Origin: Fistulifera solaris
Lineage: Eukaryota
Assembly (NCBI GenBank): GCA_030295235.1
Contig: AP026164.1
Coordinates: 2,170,001-2,234,000, forward strand
DNA: 64,000 nucleotides
Reading direction: 5' to 3'
The translations under genes were made by a program, and so were the position numbers. Positions 1 through 8,933 of the stretch are shown here, piece after piece. The number at the start of each line of letters is the position of its first letter. Position 1 is the first letter of the stretch. The notes under the pieces are model-generated. The model was not told the DNA's origin and did not search any database. It saw only the letters and a program-made list of their open reading frames with translations.

Positions 1-1573
1 AAGAAGTTGGAAGTGATTCTTGGCCCAGATACAACGGATCTCCAGATGCGAGTGGGTTTGCACAGCGGTCCTGTGACGGCTGGTGTTTTACGTGGTGAGC
101 GCTCACGGTTCCAGCTGTTTGGTGATACAATGAATACAGCCAGTAGAATGGAGTCGAATGGGCTTCCGGGAAAAATTCACATGTCCCAGGAAACAGCAGA
201 GCTTCTGGTTGCGGCAGGCAAAGAGCACTGGGTGATTCCTCGCTGAAGAGAAAGTAGTAGCAAAGGGCAAAGGCGAGCTGCAAACGTTCTGGCTGGTAAC
301 TACCAAAGCGTCGAACAATACTCGGAGCGAGACGGCCTCAAGTGAGACTTCTGGCGAGCACAGTGAAGGTCTTGTTCCGGAGGCGGTCTTTGACACCGCC
401 CGGTAATGGACGAAAAAACAGATCGTTTAGTGCAATGGAACGTCGAAGTCCTCGCCACTTTGTTGAAGAAAGTGGTGGCCAGGGCGTGAGGACATGATAC
501 GTACCCAGGAATCGGCACGCGATGTTACATTTTCCAAAACTACAACAACACCGCTGGATGAAGTCCAAGAAATTATCCGATTGCCGGTGTTCAAGCCGGG
601 GTACTGGTGCGGATATCAAAGACGTGGAACTAGGAGATGCAGTATTAGAGCAGCTGAGAGAGTATGTATCTGCAGTAGCATCCATGTATCGGAACAATCC
701 TTTCCACAACTTTGAGCACGCTGTCGCACGTAACCATGTCCGTGGTCAAACTTCTTTCTCGTATTGTGAGCCCGATGTTGACGCCGGTCAACAGCGATTT
801 GGAATCTACCTTGCATGATTACACATACGGCATCACATCGGATCCACTCACGCAGTTTGCTTGTGTGCTTTCGGCGTTGATTCACGATGTCGACCATCCT
901 GGTGTACCGAACACGCAACTCGTCATTGAGAATCCCCAGCTCGCCAAGTTTTACAAGGACAAGAGCGTGGCTGAGCAAAACTCGGTCGATTTGTCCTGGG
1001 ATCTACTTCAAGACAGTACGTTTGACGACTTGAGGCTGGCGATATGTCCTACGGAGCATGATCGTATCAGATTCCGTCAGCTTGTGGTCAACTCAGTCAT
1101 GGCAACTGACATCATGGACAAAGACTTGAAAGCACTTGAAACAAACGCTGGGAAAAGGCTGCTATGGGAGACAATGCCGAAGAATCAGCAAAGGACGCTG
1201 TCGATCGGTAAGGCTACAATTGTGATTGAGCACTTGATCCAGGCGTCAGACGTCAGCGCACACCATGCAACACTGGCATATCTACAGAAAGTGGAACCAA
1301 AGATTGTTTGAAGAGCTGTACAGTGCCTATATTCAAGGTCGGTCTGCAAGCGACCCTTCTGAGAACTGGTACAAGGGCGAGATTGGTTTCTTTGACTTTT
1401 ACATCATTCCTTTGGCGAAGAAATTCGCGAATGCGGTGTGTTTGGCGTTTCCAGTGACGCAGTACTTGAACTATGCTGAAAAGAATCGACAGGAATGGGA
1501 AGCCAGAGGCATGGAAGTCGTCGCAGGCATGGTGGAAGCAGCGCACAAGAAATATGGTTCGAAGCCGATGTAG
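1..1573 (+). CDS. Class III nucleotide cyclase - cyclic-nucleotide phosphodiesterase fusion (3' part, runs off the window); several frameshifts
   Basis: Cyclase motifs RVGLHSGPV and RFQLFGDTMNTASRMES. PDE motifs NPFHNFEHA, HDVDHPGVPN, MATDI, QASDV and WYKGEIGFFDFY follow in successive frames on the same strand. Confidence 0.92.
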
Positions 1574-2179
1574 ATGTTTTGTACTCGCACAGCCGGATGA
1601 AAAGGGAATCAAATGAACGTAAACTTTAGTAAGACAATTTCAAAACAAGTATTTTTTCAATATATAATCAGCACTTACCGATTGGCCAAACTTTAGCGCT
1701 GAGTAAAGAGGTTTTCCTTCCCTCGTTCTCTTCTTCTTTGACAACTTTCTGATGCCAAGCCTGTGCGTCTTTAACTACTTTACTTCAAAGCTGACTTCAA
1801 TACACTCCTTTTCGTATATTCCATTCGCAGAGTTGCTCAAGGGAGGCGTTCATCGCTCATTCTATCATCCAAATGAATCATACAACAAACATTTTGCTTG
1901 CCGTGATGACGGAAGACTGAGTCATGATTCGAGACTGAGACCCGGCACAATTAAACTAGAAGAACCGCGAATCTTAGCTTGTTTGCAACGAAACAAGAGG
2001 AAGGGAAACAATACTTAAAAAAAGATGAACAGACCATGCCTTATCGCCGAAGTCAAATCCTACTAGATTGACTATTTAGTTTATCTCGATTGTCTATAGG
2101 TTTATGACTACGTTGTCGAATTCGATAAGTCAGCTTGGTGGTTTAATTTCGATCTACGGCTTGGCTCACAAGTCGCAAA

Positions 2180-4032
2180 TTACTTTCCTTCCATCATCAT
2201 TTTAAGGTCACTTGAGGGATCTCCAACTGGCATGATGTTATAATTTTGCTGTAAAACACTCAAGATTCCAGGACTGATGTACGCTGGCAGCGAAGGACCG
2301 AGGCGAATATTTTTGACTCCCAAATGTAATAAAGTGAGCAGCACGGCAGCTGCCTTTTGCTCCAAATGAGAAATCGCCAAGGAGAGAGGCAATTCGTTGA
2401 CCGATTCCAGTTTCATCGCTTTGGCTAGTTCTAGTGCTACCACCACTGCCGAATAAGAGTCGTTGCACTGTCCCATATCGAGAACGCGAGGAATGGTGGC
2501 GCCGTTTGGAAGTGTGATCTGATTTGTCACCAGGTCATCTGATTTGAACTTCTCGGATTGCAGGATGCGATTCTTAGCACAACCAAGTGTGAGAATGATG
2601 CTGTCTTCAGGACTTTCGTCGGCCAAATCTGTAAAGTACGACCGATTCCACTGGGAACCATCACAGCCACCAATGAGTAAGATGCGGGACAACTTTCCTG
2701 CAGTAGCGGCTTCGATGATCTGATCCGCTAGAGGCAAAACAGCTCGGTGATTGAAGCCAATGGTGCGGAAAGTGGCTGGCTCTGCAGTTTGCTCAAAACC
2801 TTTGCACTGCTTCGCTTGCTCGATAACAGCCGAAAAGTCGCGGTTCTTCACATGCTTAATGCCGCTTAGGCCGGTAGCATTGATGGTGTACAGTCGATCT
2901 TCGTAGATTTTGCGCGGCTTCAAAACACAGTTGGTAGTAACAACGACCGGGCCCGGGAAGCAACTGAACTCGAAATTTTGATTTTGCCACGCTGTACCAT
3001 ATGATCCAGCCAGATGCGGGAAGGCATGAAGCTTCGGGTACGAATGGGCAGGTAACATTTCGCCGTGCGTGTAAACTTGAATACCGGTACCTTCGGTTTG
3101 CTTCAACAGATGGTACAGATCCACCATGTCGTGTCCGGATACGAGGATGCATTTTCCCTTGACAGCCGAAGTTCGAACGGGTGTCGGACAAGGCGCTCCT
3201 AACAATTCAGCATGCGCCGCATCCAGGGCAGCGAGGACCGACGTATTCACTTCACCAATCTTCAATGCAGCTTGCAGCAATCCATTGACATCCGCTGTAT
3301 CATCCGCTAGCTTGGCATAAATTTCATGAATAGCGATCATGACGCTCTCATCGACACTCGATCCATCAATCTCTTGACGCAACTGATGAACGTGCTCGGC
3401 GTAGGCACACAGTCCCTTCATACCGTACGTGGCGAGCTCATGCAACGAGAAAGCATCTTCATGATTCATCAGTTTGGCTCGTTCGGGAACTGAGACTAGC
3501 AGAGCCGCTTCTTGAATTTGCGATTCGGTCTTGTTGAGCCAGTCCAAGTGTGCCACAGGATGGCTCGGAGTCGCCACCCTGCCGCCGCAAATTCTTTCTT
3601 GAGGGCTTCACCTTGCTGAATGTATTCGAGAATGCGATTCTCATCAAAGTTCACGTTGGTGAGTGTACTGAACGTCGCTTCGAGCGTCCAAGTGTTGGCC
3701 TTGGCGAGGACATTCGCCGCAGTCCCACTGGCTCGGGCGGCAGTGCACCACAATGCGACAGATTTCAACACATGAATTAAGGCATCCTGTGCGGCCGAAG
3801 TCTCGGGTGTCTTACCGCAAACTCCAACGGTCGTGCAGGCGTGATGATCCGCCGTTTGTTCACATTGACGACAGAACATGGCGGATTCCGTCGACTGCCA
3901 GCGCGCTGTCATGTGAGAGGATTTAGCAGTTCTCGTAAAACCATGAGGTAAAGCTTGTGTAGCGACCAGACTCTTAGCGAGCGTCGATCGAAGCTGCGAC
4001 GAAGCGGCAACGCGGCGTAGAGTACTCAACAT
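2180..4032 (-). CDS. hcp: Hybrid-cluster protein (Hcp/prismane; hydroxylamine/NO reductase family) with mitochondrial-type presequence; one frameshift at a G run (~3577-3579)
   Basis: N-terminal MFCRQCEQT..CTTVGVCGK (CX2CX8CX5C). Hybrid-cluster motifs SGHD, THGEM, TTNC, GGCDG, LGCAK, GQCND and HLEQKA are present. Adding one G joins the 3496..4032 and 2180..3577 ORFs. Confidence 0.96.
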
Positions 4033-4678
4033 GGCGATCGAAAGAAAAGAAAGTTACTTGTTTTGTATCCGTCAAGCAAAACAGATTTATGACGATCGGA
4101 AAAGATTCTGCATCCTGCTGAAACGAAAGGTATTTCAGAGTTTGGATTCGGATTTCAGGCATTCATCACAATCTTACCCTTTCAATCCGCCGAGCCGAGA
4201 AAAAATGCGAACCTGCAAAGAACGCTTCACTCGGCCGTACTATTTCTGACTGTAACAATACTTCGAATTGCGGGGACTTTTGTAAACTACACAAAATCAA
4301 TGAATCCTGAAAAATTTCCCCGTTAGATTCGAAGTCACGCCAGTTCTTCCGGGGAACGAAAAGTACTGTTTCTATGGTAGTAGAAAGGTATGAGGTCACA
4401 GACATTGTTCCTCGGTCACAATATTGAGTATCAACAGCCGCCGAAAATCCGAACTCGAATCTTCAAGAGATTACAAAGGATGGATCTGTTATTCGTAACG
4501 TTCCTTCCAACGCCTTATTTCCAAGACTTTCTTGGATAGAAAGTGAAGGTCGGACTTGACACCAAATAATGTGAGTTCGGGTTCGACAATTGTCGGGGCA
4601 TTGGTAGACACCAACCGAGTAAAGATCGGATTCCGACACCACAAATGATTCATGCCCACAAATTTGGAATATCCTCGA

Positions 4679-6532
4679 ATGATGAATCGTTTCTTGTTGC
4701 GCTCCACAAGATCGTCACTTCCCATGACGGTGTTGCGGCATCTACGCTGGTTGTCGACACAACCGATCAAAGACTCTTTTCAAAAGGTCTCCATTTTGTA
4801 CGGAAGTCAAACAGGGACAGCCCAACTCTTTGCCATGCAACTGCAACAGGCACTGCAAGGCGCCGGAAAGGAATGCACGATGAAAGCTATGGCCGAAGTT
4901 CCACCATCCTCTTTAACGGATGATTGCCTGCACTTGTTTCTGATCAGTACTACGGGGGTCGGTGAGTTTCCTTCTAACGCCAAATCGTTTTACGAAGGCT
5001 TGTCATCATCGAAGAACGAAGCGCCGGCGATCCCCTACGCCATTTTCGCCCTTGGCAATTCGCAGGCCCATCCCAATCACTTTTGTGCCGCAGGAAAAGC
5101 ACTCCAACAAGCGTTTCAGGCCAAATTTCCGAGTGCCGTTCAGGTTTTACCGGTGCGATTGGGAGATGACGCTGTATGTATTGACGAAGAATTCGACCAG
5201 TGGCAAGAGAAAATCCTTCACACAATTGCTAAAGGAACGGAAAACACGGACGGTGAGACACCCAAGTGCAAAACATCGACGCTAGCGACGGAGACGCAAG
5301 CGCCCACGACTCGTATCCCGACGAATTACCCGGAATTGCACTTGTTAGCAGCTCAACAGAGCCGTGACGACGCGCCAGACTTGCTGGACATTTTCCCCCA
5401 TTTTTACAAGGAGAACTGTCGTCAACGAATGGAAATAACATACAATAGGAACATGCATCCCCACGCCGTCGTGGATACGGGCTTGCATGAAATGCATTTG
5501 TCGTTACCGTCGGGTTTGTCCTATGAAACAGGGGATCACATCATGATATACCCCCGAAATCCGGACCTTCTAGTTCAAGCCTACCTCAGTCATGTCTTGG
5601 AAGGTGTTGATCCCAGCCAAGTCGTGAACGAAGCAAGTCAAGCTGGACATTACCCGCATCCTTCTGGATTATCGGTCTACCAAACACTTAGTCACTGCGT
5701 CGATCTGACGGCGCCTCCATCACCATCCTTTGCGCGCTGGCTGACCTCGTCCAAGTCGTTGGAGTACAGGCAGCAAATATCCCAGCCGCGGCGGACAGTG
5801 CTGGACTTGGTCATGGAAAATCCTCAGGCCGACAAAGTGTCGCTGGCGGATTTGCTGTATCAGCTTCCGCCCCTCCAGCCTCGCTACTATTCCATTGCTT
5901 CGGCTGCCTCCGCACACCCGAATGAATTATATTTGACATATAGACCCGTGCACTACATATCGTCACGGGGTAGTCTACGTAATGGTCTTTGCACGACGTT
6001 CATGCAAAATTGCAAACCATCTCAAACAATCGTCGCTGGATTGGTGTCGAATCCTGCTTTCCGGCTCCCATTAGATCCCCAGGTTCCAATCATCTTGATA
6101 GGAGGAGGATGTGGCGTGGCTCCAATACGGGGTTTTCTGGAAGAACTGGTCCATCAAGGCACGAATCGTCCCAAGAACGTTTCACTTTTCTTGGGCTTTC
6201 GCGATCCTGCAGATCAAGTATATCATGAGTTGGTGGAAGAGAGCCAAGGATTCCTCCAAGAATGCCACATTGGATATGCTAGTGATGGTTCTCTCGTGAC
6301 CAAGGCTTTGTCGCGAAAAGCTGAATTCCTTCATCAACAATTAGTCACTCAGGGGGCTCATGTCTATATCTGTGGAGGTGCGGCATCCTTTGGTGCTGCC
6401 ATCCGGAAAACAGTGACAGATTTACTCTGGCAAGGCAATTGCTCGGGAACGATACCCGATGCTGAGGTTGCTACAAGTTTTCTACAGCACATGTCGTCGG
6501 AAGGACGATGGCATGAGGATTTGTCAGATTGA
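4679..6532 (+). CDS. Stand-alone diflavin (FMN/FAD/NAD(P)H) oxidoreductase of the CPR/NOS-reductase/CysJ superfamily with mitochondrial-type presequence
   Basis: Flavodoxin motifs ILYGSQTGTA, STTGVGEFP and FALGNS. FAD motifs PRYYSIAS and GLCTTF. Nucleotide-binding motifs GGGCGVAPIRGF, LFLGFR and VYICGG. Probable start is MMNRFLLRS at 4679; an in-frame ATG also exists at 4652. Confidence 0.93.
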   Translation: MMNRFLLRSTRSSLPMTVLRHLRWLSTQPIKDSFQKVSILYGSQTGTAQLFAMQLQQALQGAGKECTMKAMAEVPPSSLTDDCLHLFLISTTGVGEFPSNAKSFYEGLSSSKNEAPAIPYAIFALGNSQAHPNHFCAAGKALQQAFQAKFPSAVQVLPVRLGDDAVCIDEEFDQWQEKILHTIAKGTENTDGETPKCKTSTLATETQAPTTRIPTNYPELHLLAAQQSRDDAPDLLDIFPHFYKENCRQRMEITYNRNMHPHAVVDTGLHEMHLSLPSGLSYETGDHIMIYPRNPDLLVQAYLSHVLEGVDPSQVVNEASQAGHYPHPSGLSVYQTLSHCVDLTAPPSPSFARWLTSSKSLEYRQQISQPRRTVLDLVMENPQADKVSLADLLYQLPPLQPRYYSIASAASAHPNELYLTYRPVHYISSRGSLRNGLCTTFMQNCKPSQTIVAGLVSNPAFRLPLDPQVPIILIGGGCGVAPIRGFLEELVHQGTNRPKNVSLFLGFRDPADQVYHELVEESQGFLQECHIGYASDGSLVTKALSRKAEFLHQQLVTQGAHVYICGGAASFGAAIRKTVTDLLWQGNCSGTIPDAEVATSFLQHMSSEGRWHEDLSD

Positions 6533-6639
6533 ACATGAAGCCTCAAATGGAAAGAGTATCATACAGAAAAGGTTTAATTCATAAACAAACCAACGCTATC
6601 GATTACGCTACAGGTTTTAGATGATCATCGTTGGAAGAT

Positions 6640-7436
6640 TTAGTATTCAGAGGACGTCATAGGGGCATCCGACGAAGTAAATTCAGGATCTTTCTTGGGT
6701 CCGTCCTTAATCAATCCTAACGGCTTCAAGAGAGTATTGACAATAGGCTTCAGCATTTCTTGAGTCTTGTCCGAAGCTCCAATAAGTAGACTGAGAACCG
6801 CATTGATCGTAGGATTCAAGATACCGTCGTCAACCTGGTGCAACTTAACGGAAACACCCTTATCAACGTCATCAAGGTTTTTGCCAACTACGGACACAAC
6901 AGTACCGGCTACACCTTCAGCGAGACCGAGAAAGGGACCTACGAAGAAAACTCCTTTTCCCCAACCCCAAACGCCCTTGGCGGAGTCGTACACGTGGGTG
7001 GCAACATCAATGTTCTTTTCAGAAGTCATTTCGGAGTCTTCAAAATCTTCTGTTTGAGCGGTAATATCTACAAAGTCCTGTGAAAGAGGGTCACGAGCAA
7101 AGGGTGAATCTTTTGATAAAGAATAATCGTCAGCGGGAAAAAGTGTCGACCACGGCCCGTTTCCATTCCAGAGTGCATTGATTGTGCAACCGAGGCAAAG
7201 TCTTCCGTCGCAACGGACAAGCTGCAGGACGACTTGTGCTTTTCATGTATCTGATGCGCTAGTGCCAATGCTGATATTGTGTCCGTCGGAAGGCCGGGAC
7301 CGAAGAATAAGGACTCAGCAGGGCCTTTAGGCGATACAGGTTGAAGCATATCATCGTCATCCAAGCTATAATCCCCCGAGGATGGAGTCATCATAGAAAT
7401 GCCTGGAATGTCGAGCTCTGATCCGATAAGACTCAT
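6640..7436 (-). CDS. Hypothetical protein, probably two exons (7436-~7150 and ~7070-6640); C-terminal amphipathic-helix-rich domain
   Basis: The 129-aa ORF reads open upstream (DFVDITAQTEDFEDSE-MTSEK) to a pyrimidine-rich acceptor region. A 122-aa ORF lies directly upstream on the same strand. Exact splice sites are uncertain. Confidence 0.55.
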
Positions 7437-8933
7437 TCTTTCCTTTGATTAACGTTCGAAAGATCACAAACAACAACTTCAAGTGTTCTCAAAATGAAAC
7501 AACTGGAATGTCAAGCAAAGGAGCAACGCGTGAGAGTTTAGTCTTTTCGAAAGAATTGCACGTGAAGCGGCAAGATACAAACGACGGTGCAGTTCGCTGT
7601 CCCTAAAGTATAGGCCAATGTGTAGACAGCACCAATGCTTCGCAACCGCGGGCGTGCGCGGCCTCACAGGGGGTCTGAGTGAAACAGTAGAGTGATGCGC
7701 CGTATAGCGGATCGACGTCGATTTTTCGCACGGATACGCGAACGCTTTCACAAAACTATGTCGTGTAAAGTAGTTAAATACTTCGCACGAAAGAATATCG
7801 AGCCGCCGCCACCACCATGGCGATCGTGAACGGCGTCTTGTTGCTGGGCATGAGCGTCTTGGGCTAGAATATTGACTCTAACATGATGAAGATGAGGGCG
7901 TCTCGATGACTAGTTCGGATAGACGAGCGGTCGGAAGGGAGCTTACATGTCCTTTGGAAGTATGGTGCTCTTTACATTTCAATTCATCCCTTTTCTTGCA
8001 ACCAACAGATTCTCTCGCAACATTGCTCTTCGGAACGTACCTCTGCAATCAACAACAAACATGTTGCATACCTTGTATTGAATTGTAGTTTGATCTTTGT
8101 TGTCGAATGGATTCCAGCTTCGCGGGGAACGGAACATTACGATTTGTGGAACAGGAAAGGAGTGATGAAAATGGCGGCTCGGATTTCCGCAGATGTGAGG
8201 AAGTCGATCGACATCATTATTATTATTTGAAATTCGACCCTACACCCTACACCCATGAAATAAAGTCGTCGACCATTTACGTTTTACAAGTAGCTTTCAA
8301 TGCCGTGTAGTACGTCACAAAGAAAACCTGTCTAGGGTTTAAAGTACCCGATCGGTTCTGAAATTTATCTAGGGCGGTGGAAAATGGGAACTGCATAACA
8401 TCACCTCTAGAAATCGAAATTGCCGTTTATGTTTTATGCCATGGCCGAAAGCGAGGCAGCCAGCTACATAAGTGACCATTGTCGCCTTTCACCTTGTATT
8501 CCGCTATTGCTATGTATACCATTGTCACCCACAACGGCCAAGGGCATCAACAAAAATTTCTAAATAGAAAGGATGGGGCGGCTCTTAGTTCGTGACAAGT
8601 CTCAGGTAAAATCATTGTGTGTGGCTATCAAATATCAAACTAAAGTTGGCGATTAGCTCTTCTAATATTTAAATTGCTTTTTTCGCGACTAAAGCACAGG
8701 AGAAAAAACGGCAGATCCTAAAAAATGCGCACTTGAAACTACAAATCGTTCAGTTAACACGAAAAATACCTTCTCGCCCCTCCATAGTCAATGCATCGGG
8801 GTCGTACAAAGCAAAAACCGGAAGCTATATTCAAAAATGATTCATACCAGGTACGACCATGCATACTTGCATGACCACGCGAAATCAACTGACCGTTTCG
8901 CAAGAACAAGATCAATCGTTACTTAGCTCATTA

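Follow-up and report, generated by a model that had tools for sequence, protein, structure and literature searches.

In cytochrome P450 reductase (CPR), the C-terminal tryptophan covers the re-face of FAD and must move before the nicotinamide ring can stack there. To our knowledge, this stacking aromatic and a Ser-Arg..Lys.Tyr motif are treated as hallmarks of diflavin reductases, and to date a switch of coenzyme specificity has been demonstrated only in mutants. Sections of PMC3565348 describe the flip of the CPR tryptophan and the charge interactions with the 2'-phosphate that discriminate against NADH, and part of a review tabulates human CPR W676A, rat CPR W677A, and the P450 BM3 variants W1046A and R966D/W1046S as shifts from NADPH to NADH (PMC5817062). 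The first of these was also a precedent given in an initial annotation of the DNA that concerns us here, which attributed to W676A the same move toward NADH. That DNA is a 64,000-nucleotide stretch of contig AP026164.1 from Fistulifera solaris (hereafter, the window), and its element of interest is an open reading frame (ORF) encoding a predicted diflavin reductase (the query) in which a serine occupies the position of the stacking aromatic and the 2'-phosphate motif is absent. The observation is solid and family-wide, and a preference for NADH in these enzymes is plausible. A natural clade carrying both changes would show evolution's answer to the same engineering problem.

A second described system bears on the gene next to the reductase. 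Hybrid cluster protein (Hcp), an iron-sulfur enzyme, acts as a reductase of nitric oxide or hydroxylamine. In part of PMC10210160, Hcp classes are defined by the spacing of the cubane motif, and Hcr appears as a dedicated, pyridine-nucleotide-driven reductase of the E. coli class II Hcp, encoded beside hcp. A passage of a 2023 paper states that it is not known what donates electrons to class I Hcp, and that class II Hcp uses Hcr with NADH (PMC10210160, in part); the initial annotation had likewise taken bacterial Hcr to be an NADH enzyme, which agrees with the description of the E. coli type. We propose the same role for the query, which is encoded head to head with an Hcp gene. Hcr is described in a reference title as an FAD and [2Fe-2S] protein, its make-up being an FNR-like FAD/NAD module and a ferredoxin domain with no FMN domain, whereas the query is a diflavin protein with no architectural homology to it. 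Because the Pfam matches of the query include a flavodoxin domain but no Fe-S domain, it would be a functional analogue of Hcr at most. Furthermore, the diatom Hcp has class-I cubane spacing, whereas the E. coli partner of Hcr belongs to class II (PMC10210160).

By its domain composition, the query is a complete diflavin reductase with an NAD(P)H to FAD to FMN to acceptor layout. Pfam recovers the order characteristic of the superfamily, FMN, FAD/connecting, and NAD(P)H domain in a single chain, with all three matches exceeding the family cut-offs (Table 1). Residues R411, Y413, S414, I415, and A416 are invariant in our family alignment A1, as are the hydride-transfer residues S414, C574, and D623. 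In HMMER comparisons with PDB chains, the top match is CPR (E 7e-51), followed by the nitric oxide synthase (NOS) reductase modules, P450 BM3, and CysJ. An AlphaFold2 model built with a 27-sequence family alignment as input has a mean pLDDT of 79.9, with disorder confined to residues 1-38 and 196-223 and a last strand at 620-624. The top Foldseek matches of this model are CPR structures, with TM up to 0.75, and the crystal structures of CPR W677G and W677X (1J9Z, 1JA0) are among both the sequence and the fold matches of the query. Rat and human CPR (PDB 1AMO, 3QE2) share with it the three-domain layout, the fold, and the Ser/Cys/Asp and GRx..D tail scaffold, at about 23% identity in the structural alignment. 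Unlike CPR, the query has no N-terminal membrane anchor and carries a basic, presequence-like extension instead.

It is at the C-terminus and in the coenzyme pocket that the query departs from the CPR pattern. The ORF translation reproduces the ending RWHEDLSD reported in the initial annotation: the C-terminus reads SSEGRWHEDLSD and is followed by a TGA stop at 6530-6532. HMMER pairs this tail with the CPR sequence 'GRY..' up to residue 622-624, and Ser625 falls in the column where a strict NADPH-hemoprotein reductase (EC 1.6.2.4 type) would carry the FAD-stacking aromatic. The endings that the annotation had set against it for reference also occur in database proteins, ..DVWS in P0147, RYHEDIFG in P0170, and ..RDVY in P0328, which is named a sulfite reductase flavoprotein of Psychromonas. 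After LFLGFR (residues 512-517), the query reads DPADQVYHELVEESQGFLQECHIGYASDGSLVTKALSRKAEFL, a stretch also excerpted as ECHIGYASDGSLVTKALSRKAEFL, and both HMMER and MAFFT alignments uphold the claim that the 2'-phosphate motif AFSR...K.YVQ is missing there. The full Ser-Arg...Lys-x-Tyr-Val-Gln signature of the EC 1.6.2.4-type NADPH site is absent from the query and from the clade to which it belongs.

The details of this loop depend in part on alignment. HMMER sets the query segment 'igyasdgs...lvtkalsrk' against 'vafsreqahkvyvqhllkrd' of rat CPR, with a three-residue gap at the CPR Lys and a Leu at the adenine-stacking Tyr. The register of the Ser-Arg pair differs by one residue between methods, S544/D545 in HMMER and A543/S544 in MAFFT, with Arg in neither; a replacement of Arg by Asp is therefore alignment-dependent, as is whether D545 sits exactly on the Arg position. 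Independent of register, the query loop contains zero Arg and zero Lys. In the R634 column of CPR (the CGGA-R position), the query has Ala. Taken with its clade, the query thus differs from CPR in having Ser or Ala for Trp677, no Arg597, Lys602, or Tyr604, Gly for Asp632, and GGGCG for GPGTG.

The missing aromatic and the missing NADPH motif are a family trait, more than chance, to judge from homologous sequences. Among the 120 closest homologues, 117 end in [ED]D[LVI][AS][DNG], the remaining 3 being truncated before the tail, and the organism-named rows are all from diatoms (15/15). Across all sets, none of 141 tail-less proteins has W, F, or Y in its last five residues. For a wider comparison, 1.84 billion cluster representatives were searched exhaustively with phmmer, and the best 150 (50% clusters) were aligned with the query to give 151 rows: 60 tail-less, 76 aromatic-tailed (DVW, DVY, DIF, or ELW), and 15 truncated or unclassifiable. 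In CPR numbering, the Trp677 column holds Ala (38) or Ser (22) in the 60 tail-less rows and Trp (51), Phe (13), or Tyr (12) in the 76 aromatic-tailed ones. Arg597 is present in 67/76 aromatic-tailed and 0/60 tail-less rows, Lys or Arg at Lys602 in 66/76 and 7/60, Tyr604 in 67/76 (with Phe in 8 more) and 1/60 (with Phe in 9 more), and Gln606 in 73/76 and 0/60. Gly occupies the Asp632 column in 58/60 tail-less rows, and Asp is found there in 44/76 of the others. Cys630 is invariant in both groups (60/60 and 76/76), and the Asp675 column is acidic throughout, with 58 Asp and 2 Glu in the tail-less rows and 62 Asp and 14 Glu in the aromatic-tailed rows. The clade also has features of its own, such as Asp in the column after Trp677 (57/60) and, in the pyrophosphate loop, Gly at the CPR Pro column (55/60) and Cys at the CPR Thr column (48/60).

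Because these column counts separate the two groups, the aromatic and the 2'-phosphate site are evidently lost together. The comparison with CPR and orthologs that the initial annotation had proposed extends its observation from one protein to a clade: the aromatic and the Arg/Lys/Tyr set are missing across it. We define this clade by a C-terminus of the form [ED]D[LVI][AS]D, CGG in place of CGD, absence of Ser-Arg..Lys.Tyr, and a position on one side of one branch, and the query has the EDLSD end, the CGGA, the absent motif, and a place nested within the group (in the starred sets). FastTree trees of 75 rows (chosen out of 234 proteins) and 53 rows (out of 369) put tail-less and aromatic proteins on opposite sides of a single branch with support 93 and 90, in unrooted trees in which the trait columns were left in and this key branch is not starred. 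More divergent tail-less proteins include P0136, P0149, P0166, and P0215. In the literature we found neither a description of a natural diflavin reductase lacking the aromatic nor an assay of any enzyme of this clade.

In our searches the clade appears only in eukaryotes, and all of its organism-named members are diatoms. Two pattern scans of prokaryotic genomes, one genome per species, returned no tail-less member, a pattern-based result that does not prove absence. The pattern Y[VLI]CGGAx[GA]F[GA] had 37 matches in these genomes, none encoding a relative, and of the 80 loci kept from the second scan all are partial FNR-like matches except Zavarzinia. The Zavarzinia locus examined (L083, 3257-5500, 747 aa) was rejected as a clade member, as it keeps AFSRD and ends in FDLFD; it combines a long, apparently membrane-spanning N-terminal part with a canonical diflavin module. 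No Hcp was found in the loci from the prokaryotic pattern scans.

The natural family can be compared with the engineered enzymes. We take BM3 R966 to correspond to CPR R597. CPR W676A/W677A and BM3 W1046A have a small residue for the stacking aromatic, as does the diatom family, and in BM3 R966D/W1046S the 2'-phosphate Arg is replaced as well, a combination that the diatom family carries naturally. These variants are NADPH enzymes with one or two mutations introduced in the laboratory, and their turnover is lowered, whereas in the diatom clade the whole pocket is changed and conserved. The residual cytochrome c activity of human CPR is given in a section of PMC3565348 as 5% for W676A and 22% for W676H.

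The gene neighborhood suggests an acceptor for the electrons. The window Hcp has the spacing Cx2Cx8Cx5C, read from its translation, which is of the class-I type, and a presequence-like N-terminus. Its gene appears as two frames in the window, and we placed contigs of four public sequencing runs (X1-X4, all of one study, with library kinds guessed) on window positions 2000-7500. In every run, the contigs contain one C more than the window behind 3576, within a C run, and this base joins the two frames; the frame break is thus an assembly error, and we rejected the idea that the Hcp gene is a pseudogene. The divergent Hcp/reductase pair recurs in the metagenome loci L004/L005, from an intron-bearing, diatom-like genome, where the reductase is 33% identical to the query. 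A complex prediction between the FMN domain and two pieces of Hcp scored 0.22, against a mark of 0.34, and speaks neither for nor against an interaction. We found no description of an Hcp-diflavin reductase pair in the literature.

Fusion proteins point in the same direction. A search for longer relatives yielded eight proteins of 1171-1256 aa (P0352, P0360, P0362-P0365, P0367, P0368) that combine Flavodoxin, FAD_binding_1, and Prismane domains in a single chain, NAD_binding_1 being present in four as well; P0365 is named hydroxylamine reductase and comes from Chromera velia. In these fusions the reductase is N-terminal and a class-I-spaced Hcp C-terminal, whereas the query reductase and its Hcp are separate genes. 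All eight have a basic N-terminus and His-Asp after the Ser (VASHD) with no Arg, a loss they share with the query. They form a separate clade (starred support of 100) and are only 23-28% identical to the query. Two or more lineages of eukaryotes thus join Hcp with a diflavin reductase, in one case as gene neighbors and in the other as a fusion. None of the 17 long proteins scanned in the tail-less clade contains a Prismane domain, and we found no description of diflavin reductase-Hcp fusions in the literature.

The N-terminus bears on where the enzyme would act. The query begins with MPTNLEYPRMMNRFLLRSTRSSLPMTVLRHLRWLST, which has no long hydrophobic run and no anchor of the microsomal-CPR kind, and residues 1-38 of the model have a pLDDT below 50 and no helix. 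Among 91 extended family members, the median extension is 56 residues long, and the first 40 residues hold, as medians, 6 basic, 1 acidic, and 7 Ser/Thr residues; 74 of the 91 have at most one acidic residue there. Basic, Ser/Thr-rich, acid-poor N-termini occur on both window proteins and on both L004 proteins. Acanthamoeba Hcp was found to be mitochondrial by microscopy in a 2026 paper (PMC13632651, in part), in whose main text the reductase terms looked for do not occur. Translation of the query could also start at M10 or M11 (4679 or 4682), the model start of a 90%-identical relative, and P0001 aligns from query residue 10.

From these comparisons we propose that the pyridine-nucleotide pocket of the clade has been rebuilt as a set. 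Ser or Ala stands in for the swinging, FAD-stacking Trp/Phe/Tyr, the Arg, Lys, and Tyr that grip the 2'-phosphate and adenine of NADPH are gone, and the Asp632 loop carries Gly, with the Ser/Cys/Asp hydride-transfer residues and both flavin sites retained. The nicotinamide site would then be permanently open and CPR-style selection of NADPH impossible; with good confidence, we consider CPR-type NADPH recognition to be lost in the tail-less reductases. With both gate and phosphate anchor lost, the hydride would most likely come from NADH, or from both coenzymes unselectively. The lost gate, the lost anchor, and the altered Asp632 loop would together fit selection for a coenzyme without a 2'-phosphate, and we lean toward NADH as the preferred physiological donor of the query. 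The basic N-terminal extension may direct import into mitochondria, where the FMN domain would most likely pass electrons to the class-I-type Hcp encoded head to head with it, as the unrelated Hcr does in E. coli; it is the gene pair and the fusions that suggest this transfer. Our confidence in the account as a whole, with its rebuilt pocket, use of NADH or of both coenzymes, mitochondrial location, and delivery of electrons to Hcp, is moderate.

Several observations weigh against this account. Mitochondria also contain NADPH. Composition is the sole basis on which the N-terminal extension suggests a mitochondrial presequence. The gene order was seen in two lineages, that of the window and that of L004/L005, with the remaining three family loci too short to show it, and the trees that separate the clade have the limits given above. 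The Hcp fusions retain an aromatic in the stacking position (EE[YFH][FY]), unlike the query; because Hcp-fused reductases keep one, a link to Hcp does not require losing the aromatic. The pocket lacks a conserved acidic residue to keep NADPH out: where the query has D545, the relative of 90% identity has V and that of 77% identity has N. Two or more Arg/Lys residues, possible phosphate binders, are found in the loop of 15/60 tail-less rows. In mosquito CPR, W678A did not lower the Km for NADH and tightened the binding of NADPH, according to a section of PMC3565348.

The last three of these points favor the main rival to NADH preference, which holds that the reductase is unselective or still prefers NADPH, with the phosphate held by other residues such as the CGGAR Arg or loop basics, and that an open FAD site alters kinetics (for example, through faster nicotinamide binding) and not specificity. 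It could also draw on the 37/60 tail-less rows with at least one loop Arg/Lys and the 37/60 with Arg at the R634 column. The query itself offers neither kind of substitute, however, as its loop has no Arg or Lys and Ala fills the CGGA-R position, and the joint loss of Arg597, Lys602, and Tyr604 would be hard to explain if NADPH were still being selected. We consider this alternative unlikely, though it is the strongest of those weighed here.

Alternatively, the reductase may not serve Hcp at all, the neighborhood being incidental and the acceptors being P450s, cytochrome b5, heme oxygenase, or quinones. Eukaryotic neighbors commonly share just a promoter, databases label the family NADPH-hemoprotein reductase or P450 reductase, and the gene order comes from only two lineages. 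Yet reductases that share just 33% identity have retained the head-to-head pair, other eukaryotes contain Hcp-diflavin fusions, the query lacks a membrane anchor like that of microsomal CPR, and both neighbors have similar presequence-like N-termini. On this evidence an acceptor other than Hcp seems distinctly improbable.

The initial annotation had advised confirming the 3' end with reads, and the result leaves its observation in place. Over 5713-6526, the contigs of every run match the window without a differing letter or a gap, the stop codon lies within one contig (X2 record 15, 6497-6963), and no differences, indels, or joints occur within 6180-6532 in the contigs of the four runs, of which the best-matching may be the sample behind the assembly, so that their support is not fully independent. 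The comparison is able to reveal assembly errors, because it found the extra bases behind 3576 and 7137. Stronger support for a real 3' end comes from two relatives, one named Fistulifera solaris (90% identity) and one 77% identical, both with the identical GRWHEDLSD ending; orthologs thus keep the tail and do not restore DxW/F or SR..K.Y, which the initial annotation had named as grounds against its reading. An artefactual C-terminus, produced by missequencing, an overlooked intron, or gene decay, would find some support in the two single-base errors elsewhere in the window (3576, 7137). It can be dismissed with near certainty, since the segment is clean in four runs with a contig spanning the stop, and the same tail recurs at 90% and 77% identity and its type in 117/120 homologues.

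A bolder version of the preferred account, in which the clade delivers electrons from NADH to Hcp, would make the tail-less reductases an old, eukaryote-wide mitochondrial NADH:Hcp oxidoreductase, the missing donor of class-I Hcp, and the first natural diflavin family built for NADH. In that reading, the Trp gate and the 2'-phosphate site would have been lost by coevolution, because either loss alone cripples turnover. We offer it tentatively, as a possibility we rather doubt. Short of it, the gene pair and the fusions provide a concrete candidate electron donor for class-I-type Hcp, with a bearing on the handling of nitric oxide and hydroxylamine in diatoms. The clade would also correct the label NADPH-hemoprotein reductase or P450 reductase attached to these diatom proteins, and an NADH-driven diflavin reductase, if such it is, would be useful for biocatalysis.

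Table 1. Positions of the reductase gene, its domains and pocket segments, and the adjoining Hcp gene in the window
Feature	Position	Strand	Remarks
Diflavin reductase gene	4652..6532	+	uninterrupted ORF, 626 codons plus stop, no intron
N-terminal extension, residues 1-38	4652..4765	+	basic, Ser/Thr/Leu-rich, nearly without acidic residues; no membrane-anchor helix
FMN (flavodoxin) domain, residues 48-184	4793..5203	+	Pfam PF00258 Flavodoxin_1, E 1.4e-21
FAD-binding/connecting domain, residues 260-450	5429..6001	+	Pfam PF00667 FAD_binding_1, E 1.1e-24; with RYYSIAS and conserved Ser414
NAD(P)H-binding domain, residues 482-579	6095..6388	+	Pfam PF00175 NAD_binding_1, E 2.2e-11
Pyrophosphate loop GGGCGVAP, residues 484-491	6101..6124	+	CPR counterpart GPGTGxAP
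HIGYASDGSLVTKAL, residues 539-553	6266..6310	+	in place of the CPR AFSR..K.YVQ 2'-phosphate/adenine site; without Arg, Lys, Tyr; loop 3 residues shorter
CGGA, residues 574-577	6371..6382	+	catalytic Cys retained; Gly at CPR Asp632; C574, G575, G576, A577 invariant in alignment A1
Tail GRWHEDLSD and stop	6503..6532	+	Asp623, catalytic Asp; Ser625 (6524-6526) in the FAD-stacking Trp/Phe/Tyr column; terminal Asp626 conserved
Hcp gene	2180..4032	-	two frames in the window (ORFs 3496..4032, 2180..3577); Pfam Prismane E 9.4e-20 and 1.6e-114
Spacer between the divergent Hcp and reductase genes	4033..4651	.	619 bases, presumed shared promoter region; same head-to-head layout in L004/L005

Some members of the tail-less clade and some of the longer proteins have unusual domain content. 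In P0091, a tail-less member, Pfam places an inserted pair of EF hands between the FMN domain and the FAD domain, which hints at calcium control in some of these reductases. In the long proteins P0129, P0152, P0163, P0175, P0209, and P0230, three to six flavodoxin domains stand in tandem; in five of the six the array precedes the FAD (and NAD) module, and P0129, with six such domains, has no FAD module.

On the other side of the reductase gene, the minus-strand ORF at 6640-7029 encodes a protein with the motif VWGWGK and no Pfam match, which is 48% identical over 119 residues to the product of L004 1704-2459 (+). This protein adjoins the Hcp/reductase pair in both the window and L004, on different sides, and could be a third member of a conserved neighborhood. 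Behind 7137, one additional A is present in the contigs of each of the four runs, and the minus-strand ORFs 6640..7029 and 7068..7436 are probably one gene. In X2, X3, and X4, contigs carry a loose stretch of 14-22 T ahead of 2075, some 100 bases past the Hcp stop, that would fit the poly(A) tail of a minus-strand transcript, the kinds of the runs being guessed. Positions 4208-4575 are uncovered in runs X2-X4 and were not used as evidence for transcription units. By eye, the ORFs of window 1-1573 resemble fragments of a nucleotide cyclase and of a cyclic-nucleotide phosphodiesterase, the latter with an HDVDHPG motif.

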